This document shows, piece after piece, positions 7,972 to 61,775 of a stretch of DNA of 64,000 nucleotides (positions are counted from its first letter, which is position 1; each line of letters starts with the position of its first letter). Made by a program: the position numbers and the translations under genes. Source of the stretch: Candidatus Aminicenantes bacterium (lineage in GTDB: Bacteria; Acidobacteriota; Aminicenantia; JAMOAD01). The stretch is taken from assembly GCA_027067555.1 (NCBI GenBank), contig JAMOVU010000172.1:6650-70649 (forward strand). The letters run 5' to 3'. The notes under the pieces are model-generated. The model was not told where the DNA came from, made no database searches, and saw only the letters and a program-made list of their open reading frames with translations.

Positions 7972-8029
7972 TTTTCTCTTGACATTCTCCTCTTTTTTTT
8001 TTATATTATTAAATCGCAAGGAGGAAAAA

Positions 8030-10174
8030 ATGGATTTTAATGAAAGAATGATTCAAAAGAGAGATGGTCGCTATGCAGCGTTTGACGAAACAAAAATTTT
8101 TAACGCACTTTATAAGGCTTTTAGGGCGGTAGGGAAAAAGGATGAAAATGTAGTCCTTTATATTTCTAAGGAAGTTGTTAAAAGATTGGAAGAAAGATTC
8201 TTTAATTATGGGATAGTTCCCAATGTCGAAGAGATTCAGGATATTGTTGAAAGTGTGCTTATTGAAAAGAATGAAGCTTCTGTTGCAAAAGCCTATATCC
8301 TTTACAGAGAGAAGAGATCAGAGCTTAGAGACATAAGGCAGAATTTTCTTGATGGTATTAAAGTAATTGATGAATATCTGAGTATGCGGGACTGGAGAGT
8401 TAAGGAAAATTCCAATATGTCTTATTCTCTTCAGGGGCTTAATCTTCACATTTCTTCCACCCTTGTTGCCAAATACTGGTTAAGAAAACTTTATCCCCTT
8501 GAGGTGAGAATGGCTCATCAGGAAGGAGACTTCCACATACACGATCTTGGTATTCTTGGCCCTTATTGTGTTGGATGGGATCTTGAAGATCTTTTGAAAG
8601 TAGGTTTCACAGGAGCAAGAGGGAAGGTTGAATCCAAGCCTGCAAAACACTTCAGAACCGCTCTTGGCCAGATAGTAAACTTTTTTTATACTCTTCAGGG
8701 GGAAGCTGCGGGAGCCCAAGCTTTCTCAAATTTTGACACACTTTTAGCTCCTTTTATAAGATATGACGGATTGTCCTATAAAGATGTTAAACAGGCAATG
8801 CAGGAATTTGTTTTTAATGTAAATGTTCCTACAAGAGCCGGATTTCAGACTCCATTTACAAATATAACAATGGATCTTGTTCCCCCATCCACTTTAAAGG
8901 ATAAAGCTGTTGTGATAGGTGGAAAGGAGATGCCGGAAACATACGGAGATTTTCAGGAAGAAATGGATATGATAAATTCTGCGTTTGCAGAAGTTATGAT
9001 GGAAGGTGATGCCAAGGGCAGAATTTTTACTTTTCCCATTCCTACTTATAATATTTCAAGGGATTTTGAGTGGGAAAATGATAATTTAAAACCTCTGTGG
9101 GAAATGACTGCTAAATACGGAATTCCGTATTTTGCAAATTTTGTCAATTCTGATATGAATCCTGAAGATGCAAGATCAATGTGTTGCAGACTCAGACTTG
9201 ATAACAGGGAGCTATGGAAAAGAGGAGGAGGACTTTTCGGAGCGAATCCTCTTACAGGTTCAATAGGAGTTGTGACTATAAATCTTCCGAGAATAGGTTA
9301 TCTTGCAAACAATGAAAGTGAGTTTTTTAATATGCTTGAAAGAATGATGGAACTTGCTGTTGAGGCCCTTGAAATAAAGAGAAAGAATGTTGAAAGATTT
9401 ACAGAAGCAGGCCTTTATCCATATACGAAATTTTATCTAAGAGAGATAAAAAAGACTCATGGTAAGTACTGGAATTTCCATTTCTCTACCATCGGACTTG
9501 TGGGAATGAATGAAGCAATGCTTAATTTTATGGGAAAACCGATTACTGACCCTGAAGCAAAAGCTTTCTCTATCAAAGTTTTGGATTACATGAGGGAGAG
9601 AATTCAGGATATACAGGAAGCAACGGGTAATATGTATAATCTTGAAGCTACTCCTGCAGAAAGTACAACATACAGACTTGCGAAACTGGATAAGGAAAAA
9701 TATCCTGATATTATTACTGCCGGTACAAGTGAGCCTTATTATACAAATTCAGTACATCCTCCTGTTGATGCTTATGATGATGCTTTTGAAATCTTGGAGC
9801 ATCAGGATGATTTGCAGATAAAATTCACAGGAGGAACGGTTGTTCATCTTTTCTTTGGAGAGAATATAAAAGATTGGAGGGTTGTAAGAGAACTTACAAA
9901 GAGAATTACCTCTAAATACAGACTTCCCTATTTCTCTTTCACGCCTACTTTCTCAATTTCCCCTGTTTCAGGGTATATTCCCGGTAAGCACGATTTTGAT
10001 CCTAATGTGAGAAGTAAAGAGGATATAGAGAAATTTGGAGTGGAGATTGAGCTTACGGAAGAGGAGCTTAAAAATCTTCCGGAAGGTTCATACATAATAG
10101 TAGAGGAAGAAGATAAAGATGAAGATAAAAAAGATGAAGATAAAAAACTTACGCTTAATCTTAAATTGAATTAA
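8030..10174 (+). CDS. nrdD: anaerobic ribonucleoside-triphosphate reductase (class III RNR) large protein with N-terminal ATP-cone; C-terminal zinc-ribbon cysteines replaced by Ser; acidic KD-repeat tail
   Basis: ATP-cone at MDFNERMIQKRDGRY...; NrdD core; strong SD AAGGAGG 8018..8024 so true start is ATG 8030 rather than ORF start 7979. C-terminus ...TPTFSISPVSGY where canonical NrdD has CxxCGY. Confidence 0.85.
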   Translation: MDFNERMIQKRDGRYAAFDETKIFNALYKAFRAVGKKDENVVLYISKEVVKRLEERFFNYGIVPNVEEIQDIVESVLIEKNEASVAKAYILYREKRSELRDIRQNFLDGIKVIDEYLSMRDWRVKENSNMSYSLQGLNLHISSTLVAKYWLRKLYPLEVRMAHQEGDFHIHDLGILGPYCVGWDLEDLLKVGFTGARGKVESKPAKHFRTALGQIVNFFYTLQGEAAGAQAFSNFDTLLAPFIRYDGLSYKDVKQAMQEFVFNVNVPTRAGFQTPFTNITMDLVPPSTLKDKAVVIGGKEMPETYGDFQEEMDMINSAFAEVMMEGDAKGRIFTFPIPTYNISRDFEWENDNLKPLWEMTAKYGIPYFANFVNSDMNPEDARSMCCRLRLDNRELWKRGGGLFGANPLTGSIGVVTINLPRIGYLANNESEFFNMLERMMELAVEALEIKRKNVERFTEAGLYPYTKFYLREIKKTHGKYWNFHFSTIGLVGMNEAMLNFMGKPITDPEAKAFSIKVLDYMRERIQDIQEATGNMYNLEATPAESTTYRLAKLDKEKYPDIITAGTSEPYYTNSVHPPVDAYDDAFEILEHQDDLQIKFTGGTVVHLFFGENIKDWRVVRELTKRITSKYRLPYFSFTPTFSISPVSGYIPGKHDFDPNVRSKEDIEKFGVEIELTEEELKNLPEGSYIIVEEEDKDEDKKDEDKKLTLNLKLN

Positions 10175-10194
10175 ATTTAATAAGGAGGAATAAA

Positions 10195-10401
10195 ATGGAA
10201 AGAATTGAGGAGACAAAAGAGGTTAAAACAACAACCTCAAAGAAAAAAGTTAGGGTTAAAGTAGTGCCTACAGAAATTTATTCAAGGGTAGTGGGGTATT
10301 ATAGGCCTGTTCAGAATTGGAACAAAGGAAAAGCGGAAGAGTTCAAGCACAGAGCAATCATAGATCCTAATCATCCTACAAAAAAGAGAATAGAAATTTA
10401 A
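10195..10401 (+). CDS. stand-alone glycyl-radical domain protein (NrdD C-terminal domain homologue), cysteine-free
   Basis: 68 aa with ...SRVVGYYRPVQNWNKGKAEEFKHR matching the NrdD glycyl-radical region (RxxGY...WNxGKxxExxxR); own SD AGGAGG 10183..10188, different frame from nrdD. Confidence 0.6.
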   Translation: MERIEETKEVKTTTSKKKVRVKVVPTEIYSRVVGYYRPVQNWNKGKAEEFKHRAIIDPNHPTKKRIEI

Positions 10402-10425
10402 TTAAATATTGAAAAACTTTAATCC

Positions 10426-10451
10426 GCGGGAAAAGGTTTTCCTTTTCCCGC
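10426..10451 (+). terminator. strong hairpin (11-bp perfect stem, TTTT loop) between glycyl-radical ORF and nrdG; possible partial terminator/attenuator
   Basis: gcgggaaaagg-tttt-ccttttcccgc followed by tctctctatttt. Confidence 0.4.
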
Positions 10452-10473
10452 TCTCTCTATTTTAAACAGGAAG

Positions 10474-11172
10474 ATGTTGATAAAGGGGTTTTTGGGAACG
10501 AGTTTAATAGATTTTCCTGGAAGAATTTCTTCAATAGTTTTTACGGGAGGGTGTAATTTCAGGTGCCCTTTTTGCCATAATGCGGATCTGGTTCTGGATT
10601 ACAAAAACCTTCCTACTTTAACAGAGAATGAAATTCTTGAAAAAATAAAAAAGAGAAAGGGCTTTATTGACGGAGTCGAAATTACGGGGGGAGAGCCACT
10701 ACTTTACAATGATACTCTTGATTTTATAAAAAAAGTTAAAGAGCTTGGCTATGAAGTAAAACTTGATACGAATGGGTATTTCCCCGAAAAACTTGAGGAA
10801 ATCCTTGATTCTGGAATGGTGGATTTTATTGCAATGGATATTAAATCATCTCCTGAAAAGTACAGCTATGCATGTGGAATTGAAATTGATTTGAATAAGA
10901 TAGAAGATTCTATTTCTTTGATAATGAACAAAGCAAAGGAGTATGAATTCAGAACCACAGTGGCACCTAAGATTGTGGAGGAAGAGGATATTATTCCTAT
11001 GGTAAAAATGATCGAAGGAGCCGAGATGTATGCTCTTCAGGAGTTCAGACCTGTTAAAACAATAGATCCTTCTTTTATGGAAATATCTCCTTATCCAAAA
11101 GAGGTTTTATTTCATTTTGCGGAAATAGCAAAGCCTTATGTTAAGAAGATAGAAGTCAGGACCGAAGGGTAG
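10474..11172 (+). CDS. nrdG: anaerobic ribonucleoside-triphosphate reductase activating protein (radical SAM)
   Basis: GGCNFRCPFCHN radical-SAM CxxxCxxC motif, 232 aa, adjacent to nrdD. Confidence 0.85.
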   Translation: MLIKGFLGTSLIDFPGRISSIVFTGGCNFRCPFCHNADLVLDYKNLPTLTENEILEKIKKRKGFIDGVEITGGEPLLYNDTLDFIKKVKELGYEVKLDTNGYFPEKLEEILDSGMVDFIAMDIKSSPEKYSYACGIEIDLNKIEDSISLIMNKAKEYEFRTTVAPKIVEEEDIIPMVKMIEGAEMYALQEFRPVKTIDPSFMEISPYPKEVLFHFAEIAKPYVKKIEVRTEG

Positions 11173-55122: not shown

Positions 55123-56286
55123 TTAATTTTTGTTCAAAAAATCAAGGGCGTATTTAATATGAAGTGAAGCTCCCACAAAAAGTGCATCCTCATCAATATC
55201 AAATTTAGGATGGTGATGGGGGAAATCCGTGCCTTTTTCTTTGTTCCCCGAGCCTACAAATACGAAAATGCCGGAAACCTCTTTAAGGTAATACGCAAAA
55301 TCCTCTGCGGCCATTATTTTTCCAATCGGATTGTTTATGGAATCTCCTCCGAAGAGCGATTTTGCACATTTTTTGGCTCTTTCCGCTGATTCAGTATCAT
55401 TTTTCAAAGGAGGAGGTCCCCATATATATTCTAATTCTGCCTCAGCTCTGTGGGCTTTTGCAATATTTTCCGAGATTCTCTTTATTCTTTCGGGTATGGT
55501 TTGTCTGATTTCATCATTAAAACTTCTTACTGTTCCCTCTATTAAAGCTTCGTGGGCTATTATATTGTATCTTGTTCCTGAGACTATCTTACCCACACTT
55601 ACCACTGTTGGCTCAAGAGGGCTTATCTCTCTGCTGACTATTGTTTGCAAATTAAGTACAACAGATGCGCCTATAACAGCAGCATCAACTCCCTGATGGG
55701 GCATTGAACCATGTCCTCCCTTTCCTTTGATTTTTATTGAAAATAAATCAGCGGATGCCATTATCTCTCCCGGAATAATTGAAATCTTACCTGTCTCTAG
55801 TCCGCTCCAGAGATGAATGCCAAAGATATTATCAACTCCTTCAAGGCCTCCATCTTTTATAATTTCCTTTGCTCCGTCTCCAAGCTCTTCGGCAGGCTGG
55901 AAAATTAGTCTTACCTCACCTTTAAGCTCACTTTCATACTTTTTGAGTATTTTTCCGGCTCCAAGGAGCATAGCAATATGCCCATCATGCCCGCACGCAT
56001 GCATAAGTCCCTTTTTCTCTGATTTATACTCTTTATCATTAAGCTCTTCTATTTCAAGGGCATCTATATCAGCTCTCAGTGCAATTTTCCTGTTTCCTTT
56101 TCCTATTTTTGCTATGATTCCGGTTTTTGCAATTTTTTCAAAAGGGATTTTCAGTTTTTTTAATTCCCTTTTTATAAACTCCGAAGTTTCAAACTCTTTC
56201 CAGCTTGGCTCCGGGTTTTTGTGAAAATGCCTTCTTAGTTCAATTATATAATCTTTTATAGAGCTCACTTCTTTTTTAATATCCAT
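55123..56286 (-). CDS. M20-family amidohydrolase/peptidase (N-acyl-L-amino-acid amidohydrolase-like)
   Basis: MHACGHDGH and M20D pattern, 387 aa. Confidence 0.8.
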   Translation of the reverse strand: MDIKKEVSSIKDYIIELRRHFHKNPEPSWKEFETSEFIKRELKKLKIPFEKIAKTGIIAKIGKGNRKIALRADIDALEIEELNDKEYKSEKKGLMHACGHDGHIAMLLGAGKILKKYESELKGEVRLIFQPAEELGDGAKEIIKDGGLEGVDNIFGIHLWSGLETGKISIIPGEIMASADLFSIKIKGKGGHGSMPHQGVDAAVIGASVVLNLQTIVSREISPLEPTVVSVGKIVSGTRYNIIAHEALIEGTVRSFNDEIRQTIPERIKRISENIAKAHRAEAELEYIWGPPPLKNDTESAERAKKCAKSLFGGDSINNPIGKIMAAEDFAYYLKEVSGIFVFVGSGNKEKGTDFPHHHPKFDIDEDALFVGASLHIKYALDFLNKN

Positions 56287-56296
56287 TTCTTACCTC

Positions 56297-57472
56297 CTAT
56301 AATAATTTAGAGAAAATTCCCGCTAATATTACGGATACTATGGTTACAGTTGTAAAGCCTCCGACTAACATTTGGGGAAGCATTATATCCATAAGGTATT
56401 CTTTTTCATCTTCATTTTTTGCCAGAGCCTTAGCTGCTTCTTCCGTAAGAATATAGTTAGGGGGAAATCCGTAAAGGGCTGTCAATGAGACTGAAAATGC
56501 CATCTCTTTGGTAAGGCCCAAAAGTTTTCCTGTGATTGTTGAAAATATCCACATCCCTATAACACCGAAGGCAATTATCCCAAAAAGCGGAATAAGAAGT
56601 TTTCCAATCATCGCCGGAGTTGATTTTGAAAGCTGAGAGAAGATATATGCCATTATAACAGTGATTATAAATCCGAAAGAGGATGAAGCATTTAAAACCT
56701 TTCTTTCAATAAATCCTATTTCAGCTGCAATTACTCCGAATACAAGGCATACAACATAACTTGATATGAATTCATTTGTGATGGAAGCAAAGCCTATTGA
56801 GAGAAGGGCAACAAAGCCGGTTTTTGTCAAAAGCACATAAACTGTTTGATACTTTTGGGGAAGTGGTGGGAAAATTTTTAATTTTGAGGCTCTTGAACTT
56901 TCCTCTTTTACCTTTTTTTTATCATTCCTGTTTTTTCTGTATTCTTTAAGTAATCTTTTTCCCTCCTTTTTTAACATGATAGCTGTAAGTGGGTAACCGG
57001 CAAAACCCTGCATTATGTATATTATAATTGCAAGAAGGGCAAGGGATTCAAGCCCCTTTGAAGCAGCTGCTTCTGACATTATAAAGGAAGCCACTATTCC
57101 GCCCGTAAGGGGAGGGGTCGCAACTATGGAAAGCTCTTTTCCAAAAAGTAATATCCCAAAGCTCATTGTCATCACAATCACTCCTAAAATACCGGCAAGT
57201 GAAATCACCACCACTTTCCACTGCTCAAAAAGCTCCTTTAAACTCATTAATGTTCCCATGTGAACCAGAATCAAATATATGCTCAACTTAATAAGAGCTT
57301 TTGAAAAGCCGGCTATTTCCATCAGGTCCTTTGGAAATATTGTCCAGAAGCCGATTAAAAATATAAGAGCTGAGATAAATACGGAAGGTATATAGGCTTT
57401 TGTTTTAATTGATACTATGTCTCCCACTGCCATTATAAAGAGAATAACAGTGAAAGCCGCTAAAATTTGCAT
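56297..57472 (-). CDS. polytopic membrane protein, putative transporter
   Basis: About 10 TM helices, no motif recognised. Confidence 0.4.
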   Translation of the reverse strand: MQILAAFTVILFIMAVGDIVSIKTKAYIPSVFISALIFLIGFWTIFPKDLMEIAGFSKALIKLSIYLILVHMGTLMSLKELFEQWKVVVISLAGILGVIVMTMSFGILLFGKELSIVATPPLTGGIVASFIMSEAAASKGLESLALLAIIIYIMQGFAGYPLTAIMLKKEGKRLLKEYRKNRNDKKKVKEESSRASKLKIFPPLPQKYQTVYVLLTKTGFVALLSIGFASITNEFISSYVVCLVFGVIAAEIGFIERKVLNASSSFGFIITVIMAYIFSQLSKSTPAMIGKLLIPLFGIIAFGVIGMWIFSTITGKLLGLTKEMAFSVSLTALYGFPPNYILTEEAAKALAKNEDEKEYLMDIMLPQMLVGGFTTVTIVSVILAGIFSKLL

Positions 57473-59143
57473 TTAAAATGAGACCCCGTAACCAACCTTT
57501 TTCCTGTCGGGTTTTGTGTATGTTTTATCTTTCTTTATTAAAATAGAGTTTGCCACTGCAATTGAATTTCTCCTTTTAACTTTATAACCGATTTTTTCCA
57601 GTTCCTTTACATAATTTTCAGGCATATTTTTATCCACAAACAGAATATCAGGAAGATATTGATGATGAATTCGGGGATATTCAGCCGCTTTTTTTAGTCC
57701 CATTCCTCTTTCCACTATATTTAATATTATCTGAATGGTTGCACTTATGATTTTAGGCCCTCCGGCTGCTCCGGAAATTATGTAGGGTATTCCATCTTTT
57801 AAAACTATTGCCGGGCTCATTGAACTCAGCATTCTTTTCCCCGGACCTGCAAGATTGTACTTTGATGTGATAAGACCGAACTGATTGGCATTTTTTTCAC
57901 CGAATCCAAAATCATCTATTTCATTGTTCATTATAATTCCTGTGCCTTTTGCAATTACTCCCGAGCCAAAGATAGAGTTAAGTGTATATGTGTTTGATAC
58001 AGCATTCCCCTCTCTGTCCACAACTGAAAAGTGGGTGGTATTATTTTTTTCAAAGTTGAAAGGTGTTGGCATTTTCTCTTTTTCTATTTTTAAAACTTTT
58101 CCTATTTTAATTAATTTTGCCTTTTCATTTGCATAATTAGGATTTAAAAATGCTTTGGATGGCAAATCCTTATGAAAATCCGAATCTCCCATATAGTATG
58201 ATCTATCGAAAAATGAAACTTTCATGGCTTCGGCAAGCAAATTATAATAAGAAACATCATCTTTTGGTATTTTGAAATTTTTAAATATATTTAAAATTTC
58301 GGCAATAACCGGACCTCCGGAAGATGGTAAAGATGGTAAAATGATTTTGTAACCTTTGTAGTTAACAATCACCGGTTTTCTTATGATTGCCTTATAATTT
58401 TGAAGGTCCTTTTTTGTAATCCATCCGCCGTGTGAGGTAAAATCCTTTTCTATCTTATCAGCTGTTTCTCCCTTGTAAAACCCATCAGGCCCCTTTTCCG
58501 CTATTAGTTTTAAAGTGTGTGCAAGTTCAGGCTGGATAAGAATATCACCGGCTATATAACCTTTTCCATTATTCAGAAAAATTTTCTCAGAATCAGGAAA
58601 GTATCTGAATAGTTTTTCATATCTTTTAAATGATTTTGCAAGGTACGGCCTAATAATAAATCCGTTTTCAGCTAACTCTATTGCTGGTTGTATCAGGGTT
58701 TTCCACTCAAGTTTCCCGTACATTTTCCATGCTTTGTAAAGGCCTTTTACAGTTCCTGGAACTCCCGATGCAAGGTATCCATAGAGGGACCTTGTCCTTA
58801 CAAAGTTTCCCTTTTCATCAAAAAAGGCTTTCAAATCAAATTTTGAGGGGGCTGTTTCCCTGTAATCTATGAAAACCGGCTCTTTATCTTTCATCTTAAT
58901 TATCATAAACCCTCCGCCTCCTATGTTTCCGGCCTGAGGATAGGTTACAGCCATTACAAATCCTATGGTGACAGCTGCATCCACAGCATTTCCGCCTTTC
59001 TCTATTATTCTCTTTCCTGCCAAAACAGATAGAGGCTCATCAGCGCTTATCCCCGCTTCATAAGAGAATAAGGGGGAGGTAAAAGCAATAATTAATAATA
59101 AAATAAAAAATTGTTTAGACTTTTGATAAAAATATTTTTTCAA
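57473..59143 (-). CDS. ggt: gamma-glutamyltranspeptidase
   Basis: Signal peptide; Ntn-hydrolase T-nucleophile region (NNTTHFSVVD) and GGT family length. Confidence 0.9.
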   Translation of the reverse strand: MKKYFYQKSKQFFILLLIIAFTSPLFSYEAGISADEPLSVLAGKRIIEKGGNAVDAAVTIGFVMAVTYPQAGNIGGGGFMIIKMKDKEPVFIDYRETAPSKFDLKAFFDEKGNFVRTRSLYGYLASGVPGTVKGLYKAWKMYGKLEWKTLIQPAIELAENGFIIRPYLAKSFKRYEKLFRYFPDSEKIFLNNGKGYIAGDILIQPELAHTLKLIAEKGPDGFYKGETADKIEKDFTSHGGWITKKDLQNYKAIIRKPVIVNYKGYKIILPSLPSSGGPVIAEILNIFKNFKIPKDDVSYYNLLAEAMKVSFFDRSYYMGDSDFHKDLPSKAFLNPNYANEKAKLIKIGKVLKIEKEKMPTPFNFEKNNTTHFSVVDREGNAVSNTYTLNSIFGSGVIAKGTGIIMNNEIDDFGFGEKNANQFGLITSKYNLAGPGKRMLSSMSPAIVLKDGIPYIISGAAGGPKIISATIQIILNIVERGMGLKKAAEYPRIHHQYLPDILFVDKNMPENYVKELEKIGYKVKRRNSIAVANSILIKKDKTYTKPDRKKVGYGVSF

Positions 59144-59983: not shown

Positions 59984-60433
59984 ATGGGTAAAACAATAAA
60001 AATCGGAATATTTATCTGTGATCGTTACAAAAGCTGTGCTGGTGGAAAGTGTTTCAGAGCACTGGAGAATAGAGAGGGCGCATTTAAAATCTATGACAAA
60101 AGTGATAATGTTATTGTAGCAGGGTTTACAAGCTGTGGAGGATGTCCCGGAGGAAATATTGAGTATGCTCCCGAAGAGATGAAAAAAAATGGTGTTTCCG
60201 TAATTCACCTTGCAACAGGTTTTATAGTGGGTTATCCTCCATGTCCCTATATAAGATGCTTTAAAAAATTTATTGAAGAGAAATATGGGATTAAGGTTAT
60301 TTATGGTACCCATCCGATTCCCGAAAAATATTATAAAACCCACAAAAATTTGGGCACTTGGGAGGAGGATTGGTGGAAAGAAATATTGGAACCGGTCCTC
60401 GATAATGAGGAAATTAGAAAGGCATACGATTAA
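59984..60433 (+). CDS. CGGC-domain protein
   Basis: FTSCGGCPGG motif plus additional conserved Cys (CDRYKSCAGGKC). Confidence 0.7.
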   Translation: MGKTIKIGIFICDRYKSCAGGKCFRALENREGAFKIYDKSDNVIVAGFTSCGGCPGGNIEYAPEEMKKNGVSVIHLATGFIVGYPPCPYIRCFKKFIEEKYGIKVIYGTHPIPEKYYKTHKNLGTWEEDWWKEILEPVLDNEEIRKAYD

Positions 60434-60565
60434 ATTTTTTAATAATTAAAAAAATAACGAATCAAAAATCTCTGGTATAAATTATTAAATTAAATTCAGT
60501 TAAAATATTTGATATTTTATCTTTAATTTGTTAAAATTTTATCTAATTAAAAGAGGAGGTTTGCC

Positions 60566-60877
60566 ATGCCTGAGAAAAAGTTCGGGAATTTTACAGTGGA
60601 AGTTGATGAAAATGGTTATCTTGTAAATATGGATGATTGGAGTGAAGAACTTGCGAAGGAAATTGCCAAAGAGGTTGGAATTGAACTTACTGACAAACAT
60701 TTTAAAGTTATTAAATTTATCAGGGAAAAAATTAAAAATGGAGAAGCCCTCTCTATCAGGAAAATAGGAAAATCCGGAATAGTTTCCATTAAGGAATTTT
60801 ATCAATTATTTCCTGATGGCCCTTTAAAAAAGGCTTCTTTAATTGCCGGTGTGCCTAAACCGGCAGGTTGTGTGTGA
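60566..60877 (+). CDS. TusE/DsrC-family sulfur-carrier protein (single C-terminal Cys, TusE-type)
   Basis: C-terminus ...IAGVPKPAGCV as in TusE/DsrC; the second (CysB) Cys of true DsrC is absent. Confidence 0.8.
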   Translation: MPEKKFGNFTVEVDENGYLVNMDDWSEELAKEIAKEVGIELTDKHFKVIKFIREKIKNGEALSIRKIGKSGIVSIKEFYQLFPDGPLKKASLIAGVPKPAGCV

Positions 60878-60886
60878 GGTTTTACA

Positions 60887-61372
60887 ATGAGTGAAAAACT
60901 TAAGAAAGTATCTATTATATGCTCAAAAGGGACTATTGACAGTGTTTATGCTGCTCTTATACTTGCAAATGGGGCAAGGATGGAGGGAATAGAGGTTGAT
61001 ATGTTTTTCACCTTTTTCGGACTTGATGCTATTACAAAAAAGAAAATGGATAAACTCCATGTTGCCACAGTTGGAAATCCTGCTCTTTCTATGCCCGGTG
61101 GAATTCCCTTTCCGACAATAATCGGAATGCTTCCGGGGATTGAGGCAATTGTCTCCGCTATGATGAAAAAGGAGATGGAAAAGTTAGACATTCCTCCTGT
61201 AAGTGAATTTTTGGAGATGATAACAGCTTCCGGAGGGAAAATATTTGCATGTAAATTGGCGGTTGAAATGTTTAAGTTAAAAAAAGAGGATCTTTATGAT
61301 GATCTTGATGGTATTTTGACTGTTGGAGAATTTTACGAGAGAGCAGCAGGTTCTCAGATAATTTTTATTTAA
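60887..61372 (+). CDS. DsrE/DsrF-like (COG2210) protein
   Basis: KVSIICSKGT...FFTFFGLD pattern of DsrE/YchN fold with conserved Cys. Confidence 0.65.
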   Translation: MSEKLKKVSIICSKGTIDSVYAALILANGARMEGIEVDMFFTFFGLDAITKKKMDKLHVATVGNPALSMPGGIPFPTIIGMLPGIEAIVSAMMKKEMEKLDIPPVSEFLEMITASGGKIFACKLAVEMFKLKKEDLYDDLDGILTVGEFYERAAGSQIIFI

Positions 61373-61574
61373 GTTTTTTATAATAAAAGAAAAAATTTAA
61401 TAATTTGAACTATTTATAATAAGTTCGCAACTTTTAAAAGGATTCTTTGTTTTTTACTGTTCAATTGATCAGCTTTAAATCTATTGCTAAACTTTTAGGC
61501 TGAATATGAAAGTATTGACTTTTATTTAATTTTAGGGTATAAATATTCACAATTTTAAAAAAGAGGTGAGATGA

Positions 61575-61775
61575 GTGGCATATGTGCAGGTAAAAGAAAA
61601 TGAAAAATTTGAGTATGCTTTAAAAAGGTTTAAAAGAAAAGTACAGCAAGAAGCTATTATTAAGGAAATTAAAAAGCATTCTGTCTATTTAAAGCCGGGA
61701 GAAAGAAGAAGATTAAGAAAGCTTCAGGCACTTAAAAGAATTCACAAAAAAATCAGAAGGCTTTCAAACGATTAA
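61575..61775 (+). CDS. rpsU: 30S ribosomal protein S21
   Basis: MAYVQVKENE...ERRRLRKLQALKR...; promoter TTGACT-17-TATAAA upstream. Confidence 0.9.
   Translation: MAYVQVKENEKFEYALKRFKRKVQQEAIIKEIKKHSVYLKPGERRRLRKLQALKRIHKKIRRLSND

Follow-up and report, generated by a model that had tools for sequence, protein, structure and literature searches.

Introduction

Of the systems that most closely resemble the genes considered here, the TusBCD-TusE relay of Escherichia coli is an established pathway. For its counterpart in Allochromatium vinosum, DsrEFH-DsrC, transfer of sulfur from Cys78 of DsrE to DsrC has been documented (PMC3397948, PMC11094781). Within the DsrE superfamily, SSO1126 of S. solfataricus (PDB entry 2QS7) is of the DsrE2B type, and the first cysteine of the C-X7-C motif of DsrE3A occupies the DsrE active-site position (PMC4175335). 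No new work on DsrE2B or DsrE4 was found in the literature searched. In this work we describe three small genes in a 64,000-nucleotide stretch of DNA from a Candidatus Aminicenantes bacterium (contig JAMOVU010000172.1, positions 6,650 to 70,649 of the forward strand; hereafter the window), which encode a CGGC-domain protein, a DsrC/TusE-family protein with a single cysteine, and a DsrE-like protein.

A first-pass annotation made from the sequence alone had pointed out these three plus-strand open reading frames (ORFs) in a row and had read them as one sulfur-carrier relay. The observation itself is confirmed, down to the exact coordinates (Table 1), and the reading built on it is partly supported. 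With moderate confidence, we consider it probable that the locus consists of two independent units that became neighbours by lineage-specific rearrangement, namely a CGGC gene of metalloprotein type and a two-gene persulfide relay that is normally tied to a sulfide:quinone reductase (SQR). The pair in the window represents an "orphan" instance of a DsrE-to-DsrC/TusE relay variant that is uncharacterised, though widespread.

The DsrC-like and DsrE2B-like genes form a conserved pair

In all 74 related loci with at least 400 nucleotides (nt) of upstream sequence, the gene immediately before the DsrE2B-like gene, in the same orientation, is a DsrC-like gene, and the intergenic gap ranges from -35 to 110 nt. 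This strict adjacency upholds the part of the earlier reading in which the DsrC-like and DsrE-like proteins work together. The wider context was counted in the 51 loci whose sequence extends 2.2 kb or more ahead of the pair. A flavoprotein of about 410 amino acids (aa) is encoded upstream of the pair in 45 of them (46 counting L083, where the arrangement is interrupted by an insertion), and in 34 of those 45 a protein of about 225 aa is encoded between the flavoprotein and the pair. The flavoprotein scores 609 bits against the NCBIfam model NF049943, "type III sulfide quinone reductase, selenoprotein subtype" (cut-off 525), and the aligned copies keep Cys161 and Cys333 and contain no in-frame TGA. 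Of 24 members of the family of about 225 aa, 21 have a DUF1641 domain at the C terminus, and a divergently oriented gene for a Crp/Fnr-type regulator is present in 23 loci.

The resulting four-gene operon of type III SQR, DUF1641, DsrC-like, and DsrE2B-like genes can be seen at L087:3679-6501, and also in L091, L094, L114, L126, L139, and about 40 other loci. At L083:4201-5564 the operon is split by an insertion element with HTH_Tnp_1 and rve transposase genes, which separates the DUF1641 gene from the DsrC-like gene. Within the literature searched, neither a link between DUF1641 and DsrE or DsrC nor a description of this four-gene operon turned up. DUF1641 proteins are quinone-transport scaffolds for NDH-2, the Huc hydrogenase, and formate dehydrogenase, and an SQR partner is not mentioned (PMC13524794). 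By analogy with Ndh-Ncp, the SQR of the four-gene operon may sit on a quinone-channel scaffold with dedicated persulfide acceptors. This operon of the relatives is a better lead than the window locus.

SQR and DUF1641 genes are absent beside the pair in the window, in L003 and L090 of the same lineage, in the nearest relatives L175 and L173, and in L085/L086. Upstream of the pair, L173 (2832-8652) encodes a rhodanese, a Crp-type regulator, a peroxiredoxin, a rhodanese-SOR/ABM-like fusion, and a DUF3783 protein. A 292-aa protein is encoded on the opposite strand in this same region of L173. A convergent LutB-like (LUD_dom/Fer4_8) gene follows the pair in L173, and the same neighbour is seen in L085/L086.

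The HMM (hidden Markov model) scans that the first-pass annotation had called for, with PF08821, PF04358, and PF02635, returned 99, 101, and 25.6 bits, each above the curated cut-off, and PF13686 also matched the DsrE-like protein above its cut-off; the CGGC, DsrC/TusE, and DsrE family assignments thus hold. For the DsrC-like protein, the match to PF04358 (cut-off 24.9) is joined by one to the TusE/DsrC/DsvC model TIGR03342 at 87.1 bits (cut-off 53.5), and the protein has the penultimate cysteine on a C-terminal arm, ending in the KPAGCV quoted earlier. Genuine DsrC has CysA as the penultimate residue and CysB 11 residues upstream. Here CysA is present as Cys102 and the CysB position is occupied by Ser91, as the alignment to the DsrC structures 2xsj and 2v4j makes clear, in agreement with the earlier remark that the second DsrC cysteine is missing. 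The same pattern runs through the family, with the penultimate cysteine kept in 80 of 80 partner homologues and CysB missing in 79 of the 80. Because CysB is missing, the DsrC-like protein would not be able to form the CysA-S-CysB trisulfide used by DsrAB and would act as a carrier only.

The description of this protein as TusE-type was right as to the cysteine pattern, but not as to the sequence, which falls well short of the TusE equivalog NF008562 (64.3 bits against a cut-off of 191) and matches the DsrC structure 2xsj at 73 bits and the TusE-like structure 7syb at 47 bits. By sequence similarity, its closest relative is genuine DsrC of sulfate reducers. The gene context also differs from that of TusE, in that a single DsrE-family gene is the only partner and that phmmer searches of the window ORFs and of 90 pair-anchored loci, with an E. 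coli TusA sequence as the query, found no TusA homologue. The window contains no dsrAB genes, and neither do the five other annotated loci of the pair (L083, L085/L086, L087, L173, and L175); the first-pass statement that the window holds neither dsrAB nor tusA agrees with both the Pfam listings and the phmmer search.

The DsrE-like protein matches PF13686 (DrsE_2) at 115.9 bits (cut-off 25) and, much closer to the threshold, PF02635 (DsrE), for which the cut-off is 22.7. It does not reach the cut-off of the DsrE2 equivalog NF047629 (113.7 bits against 210). Its best solved relative is 2QS7, at 75 bits. Cys122, invariant in 81 of 81 sequences, aligns with the conserved cysteine of 2QS7 and with the first cysteine of the DsrE3A C-X7-C motif; the protein therefore belongs to the DrsE_2/DsrE superfamily both by HMM score and by possession of the active-site-equivalent cysteine. 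The first-pass annotation had singled out a conserved N-terminal cysteine, and Cys12 is indeed kept in 78 of 80 sequences, but the invariant residue is the C-terminal Cys122. The linkage with tusA and dsr or hdr genes that marks DsrE2 was seen neither in the window nor in the annotated related loci.

The CGGC gene belongs to a different neighbourhood in other genomes

We gathered 80 CGGC-anchored loci from one-genome-per-species GTDB contigs, with up to 8 kb on each side, and 87 pair-anchored loci (80 metagenome loci and seven context look-ups) for the CGGC search; the latter set was subsequently extended to 90 loci comprising 754 kb. BLASTP and partner profile HMMs built from 80 partner sequences located DsrC-like and DsrE-like genes near the CGGC gene in one of the 80 CGGC-anchored loci, L003, which is of the window's own lineage (95% identity). 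A marginal partner match in L066, to a 56-aa ORF at 14 bits, was dismissed. In the opposite direction, a CGGC orthologue was present in one of the 87 pair-anchored loci, L090, again of the same lineage as the window. L124 has a 30%-identical CGGC paralogue 6 kb from the pair, on the opposite strand. The nearest relatives of the window pair, L175 (DsrE 88% identical) and L173 (85%), have the pair without CGGC.

The neighbours that recur around the CGGC gene, mostly co-directional with it, are of another kind. They include a 312-aa radical-SAM protein (29 loci), MinD-like ATPases with ferredoxin inserts (15), MBL-fold proteins (14), NifX-like Nitro_FeMo-Co proteins (14 + 7 + 5), a CoA-disulfide-reductase-like flavoprotein (PNDR, 12), DUF89/ARMT1 (11), Mrp/NBP35 (8), and TrmO-like proteins (7). 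In L039, L047, L051, L055, L072, and L081 (around position 8000), two MinD-ferredoxin genes and genes for the NifX-like protein, the CoA-disulfide-reductase-like flavoprotein, MBL-fold, DUF89, CGGC, radical-SAM, and Mrp proteins follow one another in the same direction. When HMMs of the radical-SAM, MinD-Fer4, MBL, NifX-like, DUF89, and Mrp neighbours were run on the 90 pair-anchored loci, there was no match. In the same test, TrmO-like proteins were found in two loci, and the PNDR profile matched only the SQR, as a distant homologue.

The proposed place of the CGGC protein in a sulfur relay fails because its adjacency to the pair is limited to the window's lineage and its neighbourhood elsewhere differs. 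The first-pass annotation had itself named the two outcomes that would overturn this part of its reading, and both are what we found: the trio stands together in the window's lineage alone (L003 and L090, with identities of 93% or more) and is missing from the 79 other CGGC-anchored loci and from the other DsrE-anchored loci, and the CGGC orthologue is consistently linked elsewhere to radical-SAM, NifX-like, MinD-ferredoxin, Mrp, MBL-fold, and DUF89 genes. The recurrent CGGC cluster of anaerobes is a gene set without assigned function. Judging from this context, the CGGC protein most likely acts in the handling of metal clusters or redox cofactors, and not in sulfur-carrier relays.

A TrmO_N-domain gene lies directly upstream of the pair at L175:6074-7486, in the place where the window has the CGGC gene. 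TrmO-like genes also directly adjoin the CGGC gene in several Bacteroidales loci. The TrmO-like proteins of L175 and of the CGGC loci are only 42% identical.

The CGGC protein is strongly conserved

The 149-aa CGGC protein matches PF08821 over the entire profile (positions 1-106 of 106; cut-off 27 bits). The motif FTSCGGCPGG quoted by the first-pass annotation is present at residues 48-57, with CGGCPGG at residues 51-57. In 19 orthologues from bacteria and archaea, with a mean column identity of 80%, C12, C18, C23, C51, C54, C87, H110, and H120 are invariant. The protein has thousands of close homologues, and its orthologous group occurs in anaerobes among both bacteria and archaea. All but one of the 80 CGGC-anchored loci encode orthologues 63-73% identical to the query, and their hosts span phyla, with Bacteroidales, Calditrichaeota, Spirochaetes, Caldiserica, Desulfuromusa, Thermoplasmata, Thermococcus, and Methanomicrobia represented. 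The one cultured strain among all loci gathered is Labilibaculum filiforme (L056), which carries the CGGC orthologue.

When 1.84 billion representatives of 50%-identity clusters were searched exhaustively, only 451 clusters had a CGGC match at E <= 0.001. One full-length close representative, at 66% identity, was recovered; most of the others among the matches listed are partial, and many look like fragments. The 149-aa orthologue thus collapses to essentially one 50%-identity cluster, and since the exhaustive search gave so few clusters and a single full-length close representative, we regard this orthogroup as unusually constrained. The similarity pattern reflects either unusually strong constraint or recent horizontal spread.

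The AlphaFold2 model of the CGGC protein (pLDDT, the predicted local distance difference test score, of 93) has a four-stranded alpha/beta fold, with the conserved cysteines and histidines in loops or at helix starts after strands. No solved structure in the PDB is related to the protein by sequence, and Foldseek retrieved no convincing fold relative (best E value 0.008, TM-scores of 0.49 or below). Six invariant cysteines and two invariant histidines in a flavodoxin-like alpha/beta fold would be compatible with a Cys/His-ligated metal or Fe-S centre, and from sequence and model together we infer such a site. The literature searched contained no use of "CGGC domain" for the PF08821 family, the single match being an unrelated plant COI1 paper.

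Gene layout and flanks of the locus

The features of the locus are listed in Table 1. A Shine-Dalgarno-like site (GGAGG or GAGG) precedes each of the three ORFs. The DsrC-like and DsrE2B-like genes are 9 nt apart, and the spacer between the CGGC and DsrC-like genes contains a match to a sigma-70-like promoter at 60509-60537 (TTGATA-17-TAAAAT with TG; consensus match only) and the Shine-Dalgarno site GAGGAGG ahead of the DsrC-like gene. The spacer is kept in L003 and L090, at a column identity of 93%, which is too close to be informative. With this promoter-like site in the spacer and a terminator-like hairpin at the distal end, both consensus matches only, the two units look transcriptionally distinct, and the hairpin is probably the end of a two-gene operon.

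Table 1. Features of the three-gene locus, with positions in the window
Feature	Coordinates	Strand	Remarks
CGGC-domain protein gene	59984..60433	+	149 aa; PF08821 match; stand-alone unit outside the conserved sulfur-carrier pair
AT-rich spacer, 132 nt	60434..60565	+	Promoter-like match and Shine-Dalgarno site; probable separate start of the two-gene operon
Single-Cys DsrC/TusE-family protein gene	60566..60877	+	103 aa; CysA = Cys102; CysB position = Ser91
DsrE2B-like (DrsE_2 family) protein gene	60887..61372	+	161 aa; Cys122 invariant, Cys12 nearly so
Terminator-like hairpin and T-rich tail	61339..61380 (hairpin 61339-61355)	+	Consensus scan and sequence; overlaps the end of the DsrE2B-like gene

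The locus is flanked on one side by tatD, on the minus strand, and on the other by rpsU, which starts at 61575 after a 202-nt spacer and is followed by type II secretion/type IV pilus genes. Elsewhere the window encodes flagellar proteins, peptidases, amino-acid symporters, PEP carboxykinase, and an anaerobic ribonucleotide reductase, and the source organism, known from metagenomes alone and represented by contig k141_504607 of ERZ27262658, looks like an anaerobic, motile peptide fermenter. The Pfam listings of window positions ~2700-64000 contain no dsrAB, hdr, tusA, sqr, or rhodanese genes, and the window Pfam listings contain no selD, selA, or selB; tblastn of the window likewise found no homologues of SQR, DUF1641, or Crp. 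An Rfam scan of the window returned one tRNA only, with no match in the spacers.

Two further features of the window concern other systems. The anaerobic ribonucleotide reductase at 7979-11172 appears split, with a 731-aa NrdD ORF that has an acidic/lysine-rich tail, a separate 68-aa ORF (10195-10401) after it with the glycyl-radical-type motif RVVGYY and an NRDD Pfam match, and then the NrdG activase. On the minus strand at 55123-59143, just upstream of tatD, consecutive genes encode a gamma-glutamyltranspeptidase, a 391-aa membrane protein without a Pfam match, and an M20 peptidase; these may form a cluster for salvage of glutathione or gamma-glutamyl peptides.

Proposed function and alternative explanations

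We propose that the pair works as a cytoplasmic relay. Sulfane sulfur would first be bound at Cys122 of the DsrE2B-like protein, which is probably a trimer, and would then move to Cys102 in the flexible arm at the C terminus of its DsrC-like partner. The persulfide chemistry and the direction of transfer are inferred from the analogy with DsrE Cys78 to DsrC in A. vinosum and TusD to TusE in E. coli. Since the pair forms the distal half of the SQR/DUF1641/DsrC-like/DsrE2B-like operon in most other genomes, its normal job would be to accept and handle the sulfane sulfur arising from sulfide oxidation by SQR. In the window's lineage and its nearest relatives the pair would have been separated from SQR, and the sulfane sulfur there would presumably come from another source, either rhodaneses (as encoded in L173) or cysteine breakdown in a peptide fermenter.

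Several points weigh against our preferred reading of a sulfur relay standing beside an unrelated CGGC gene. The only DsrE2B protein that has been studied, that of M. cuprina, reacted with no sulfur compound that was tried and showed no binding to either TusA or DsrE3A (PMC4175335), and because this protein was inert in those tests, persulfide carriage by DsrE2B-type proteins is unproven. Persulfide relay by the DsrC-like/DsrE2B-like subfamily is itself proposed by analogy, and SQR, DUF1641, rhodanese, and tusA genes, which could point to a sulfur donor, are missing from the window. As regards the independence of the two units, a consensus scan found no terminator-like hairpin in the 132-nt spacer between the CGGC gene and the pair, and read-through or co-transcription from the CGGC gene into the pair is possible in the window's lineage. 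Both the CGGC gene and the pair are common in Bacteroidales and Aminicenantes, and the shared TrmO-like neighbour provides a weak chain of association between them, to which we give no weight.

Several observations can be cited for a single three-component sulfur or redox relay in which the CGGC protein would deliver electrons or sulfur. The three genes stand next to one another on one strand with no terminator-like hairpin in the spacer after the CGGC gene, L003 and L090 have the same arrangement, the CGGC protein is cysteine-rich and plausible as a redox protein, and a TrmO_N gene is a type of neighbour common to both. Synteny nevertheless largely refutes this explanation, which we regard as very unlikely: the adjacency exists only at identities of at least 93% and is missing in 79 of the 80 CGGC-anchored loci and in the relatives at 85-88%, the recurrent CGGC neighbourhood differs and is absent around the pair, and the 132-nt spacer has a promoter-like site of its own. 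We give equally little credence to a broader version, in which the pair is a portable two-protein persulfide relay with varying entry points, these being type III SQR on a DUF1641 scaffold in most genomes, rhodaneses in L173, and the CGGC metalloprotein here; if true, it would be the first functional link for the CGGC family, in reduction or delivery of protein persulfides.

Alternatives that keep the pair separate from the CGGC gene concern what the pair carries and for what purpose. A minimal TusD/TusE-type relay feeding biosynthesis, either of 2-thiouridine in tRNA or of another thio-cofactor, would fit the TusE cysteine pattern of the single-Cys DsrC-family protein, its DsrE-family partner (as in TusBCD-TusE), the gene with a TrmO_N domain, a tRNA methyltransferase-type domain, directly upstream in L175, and the position of the window pair among the housekeeping genes rpsU and tatD. 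We judge it unlikely, as the TusE equivalog cut-off is missed by a wide margin (64 against 191 bits), neither the window nor the annotated loci have tusA, tusBC, or mnmA close to the pair, and the type III SQR ahead of the pair in some 90% of loci, together with the Crp/Fnr-type regulator, is in keeping with sulfide and redox physiology rather than tRNA modification. The DsrC fold includes a helix-turn-helix-like motif, which raises the question of whether the DsrC-like protein is a sensor or regulator responding to sulfane sulfur and modulated by the DsrE2B-like protein, with signalling and no bulk carriage. The unreactivity of the studied DsrE2B with sulfur compounds in vitro (PMC4175335) would fit such a role, as would the persistence of the pair without SQR in several lineages. 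The chance of it seems slim to us, however, given that the carrier-signature cysteines are invariant (penultimate Cys in 80 of 80, Cys122 in 81 of 81) and that a dedicated Crp/Fnr regulator is already present in the operons. To our knowledge, the non-carrier relatives of DsrC lack these cysteines. Finally, DsrE-like selenoproteins are known, and the partner SQR matches a "selenoprotein subtype" model and, weakly, a SelD-linked oxidoreductase model, so that the pair might carry selenium as a perselenide in place of sulfur. This is highly improbable, since Cys161 and Cys333 of the SQR are cysteine wherever aligned with no in-frame TGA, all copies of the DsrC-like and DsrE2B-like proteins use cysteine, and selD, selA, and selB are missing from the window listings. 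The invariant carrier cysteines and the lack of selenocysteine thus make both the sensory and the selenium roles less likely than sulfur carriage by the pair.

For the window itself, this result mainly takes away a functional link for the CGGC domain that is tempting but lacks support. An orthologue that remains about 70% identical between Bacteroidales, Thermococcus, and methanogens is a strongly constrained protein and merits biochemistry in its own cluster context. The strict pairing with a single-Cys DsrC-like protein supplies the so-far functionless DsrE2B class with a candidate partner that can be tested. The wiring of the pair to SQR and DUF1641 suggests a way in which sulfide might be oxidised, and the resulting sulfane sulfur removed, in anaerobes such as Bacteroidales and Aminicenantes, and this operon could extend the newly described principle of DUF1641 quinone scaffolds to SQR.

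Comparison with known systems

The CGGC protein is a full-length, high-scoring member of its family with all of the conserved cysteines and histidines. Compared to the NifX-like/MinD-ferredoxin clusters of anaerobes, its gene in the window is isolated from the cluster and lies between tatD and the sulfur-carrier pair.

The related loci share with Ndh-Ncp, Huc-HucM, and ForC-ForE the order of genes, in that a protein with a C-terminal DUF1641 domain is encoded after a flavoprotein of the NDH-2/SQR superfamily, as in ndh-ncp (PMC13524794). They differ in having a type III SQR as the enzyme in place of an NDH-2, a hydrogenase, or a formate dehydrogenase, in coming from taxa outside the Bacillota, and in the two sulfur-carrier genes that follow; the window has none of this arrangement. 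DsrE4 is encoded downstream of SQR, and by gene position the pair resembles it in 45 of the 51 related loci, where it lies downstream of type III SQR. The published description of DsrE4 includes neither a DsrC-like partner nor a DUF1641 protein, and in the window, which has no SQR, this positional feature is not seen.

Like DsrE2B of the Sulfolobales (Mcup_0682/SSO1126, PDB 2QS7), the window protein is small, soluble, and single-domain, and its conserved cysteine aligns with that of the archaeal proteins. The archaeal genes are part of dsrE3A-dsrE2B-tusA clusters beside hdr-like genes, whereas the partner of the window gene is a DsrC-like gene, with neither tusA nor hdr nearby. Unlike the DsrE2 group, the window protein falls below the NCBIfam DsrE2 cut-off (114 against 210 bits), and DsrE2B itself is without demonstrated activity (PMC4175335).

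With DsrEFH-DsrC of A. vinosum and TusBCD-TusE of E. coli, the pair shares a DsrE-family cysteine protein encoded beside a DsrC/TusE protein with a penultimate cysteine. A single DsrE2B-like gene, of homo-oligomer type, takes the place of the three paralogous subunits, and the context of DsrAB, TusA, or MnmA is absent; the DsrC-like protein has no CysB and misses the TusE cut-off. As such, the pair is a distinct subfamily combination, in which a homomeric-type DsrE2B-like protein is joined to a single-Cys DsrC-like carrier.

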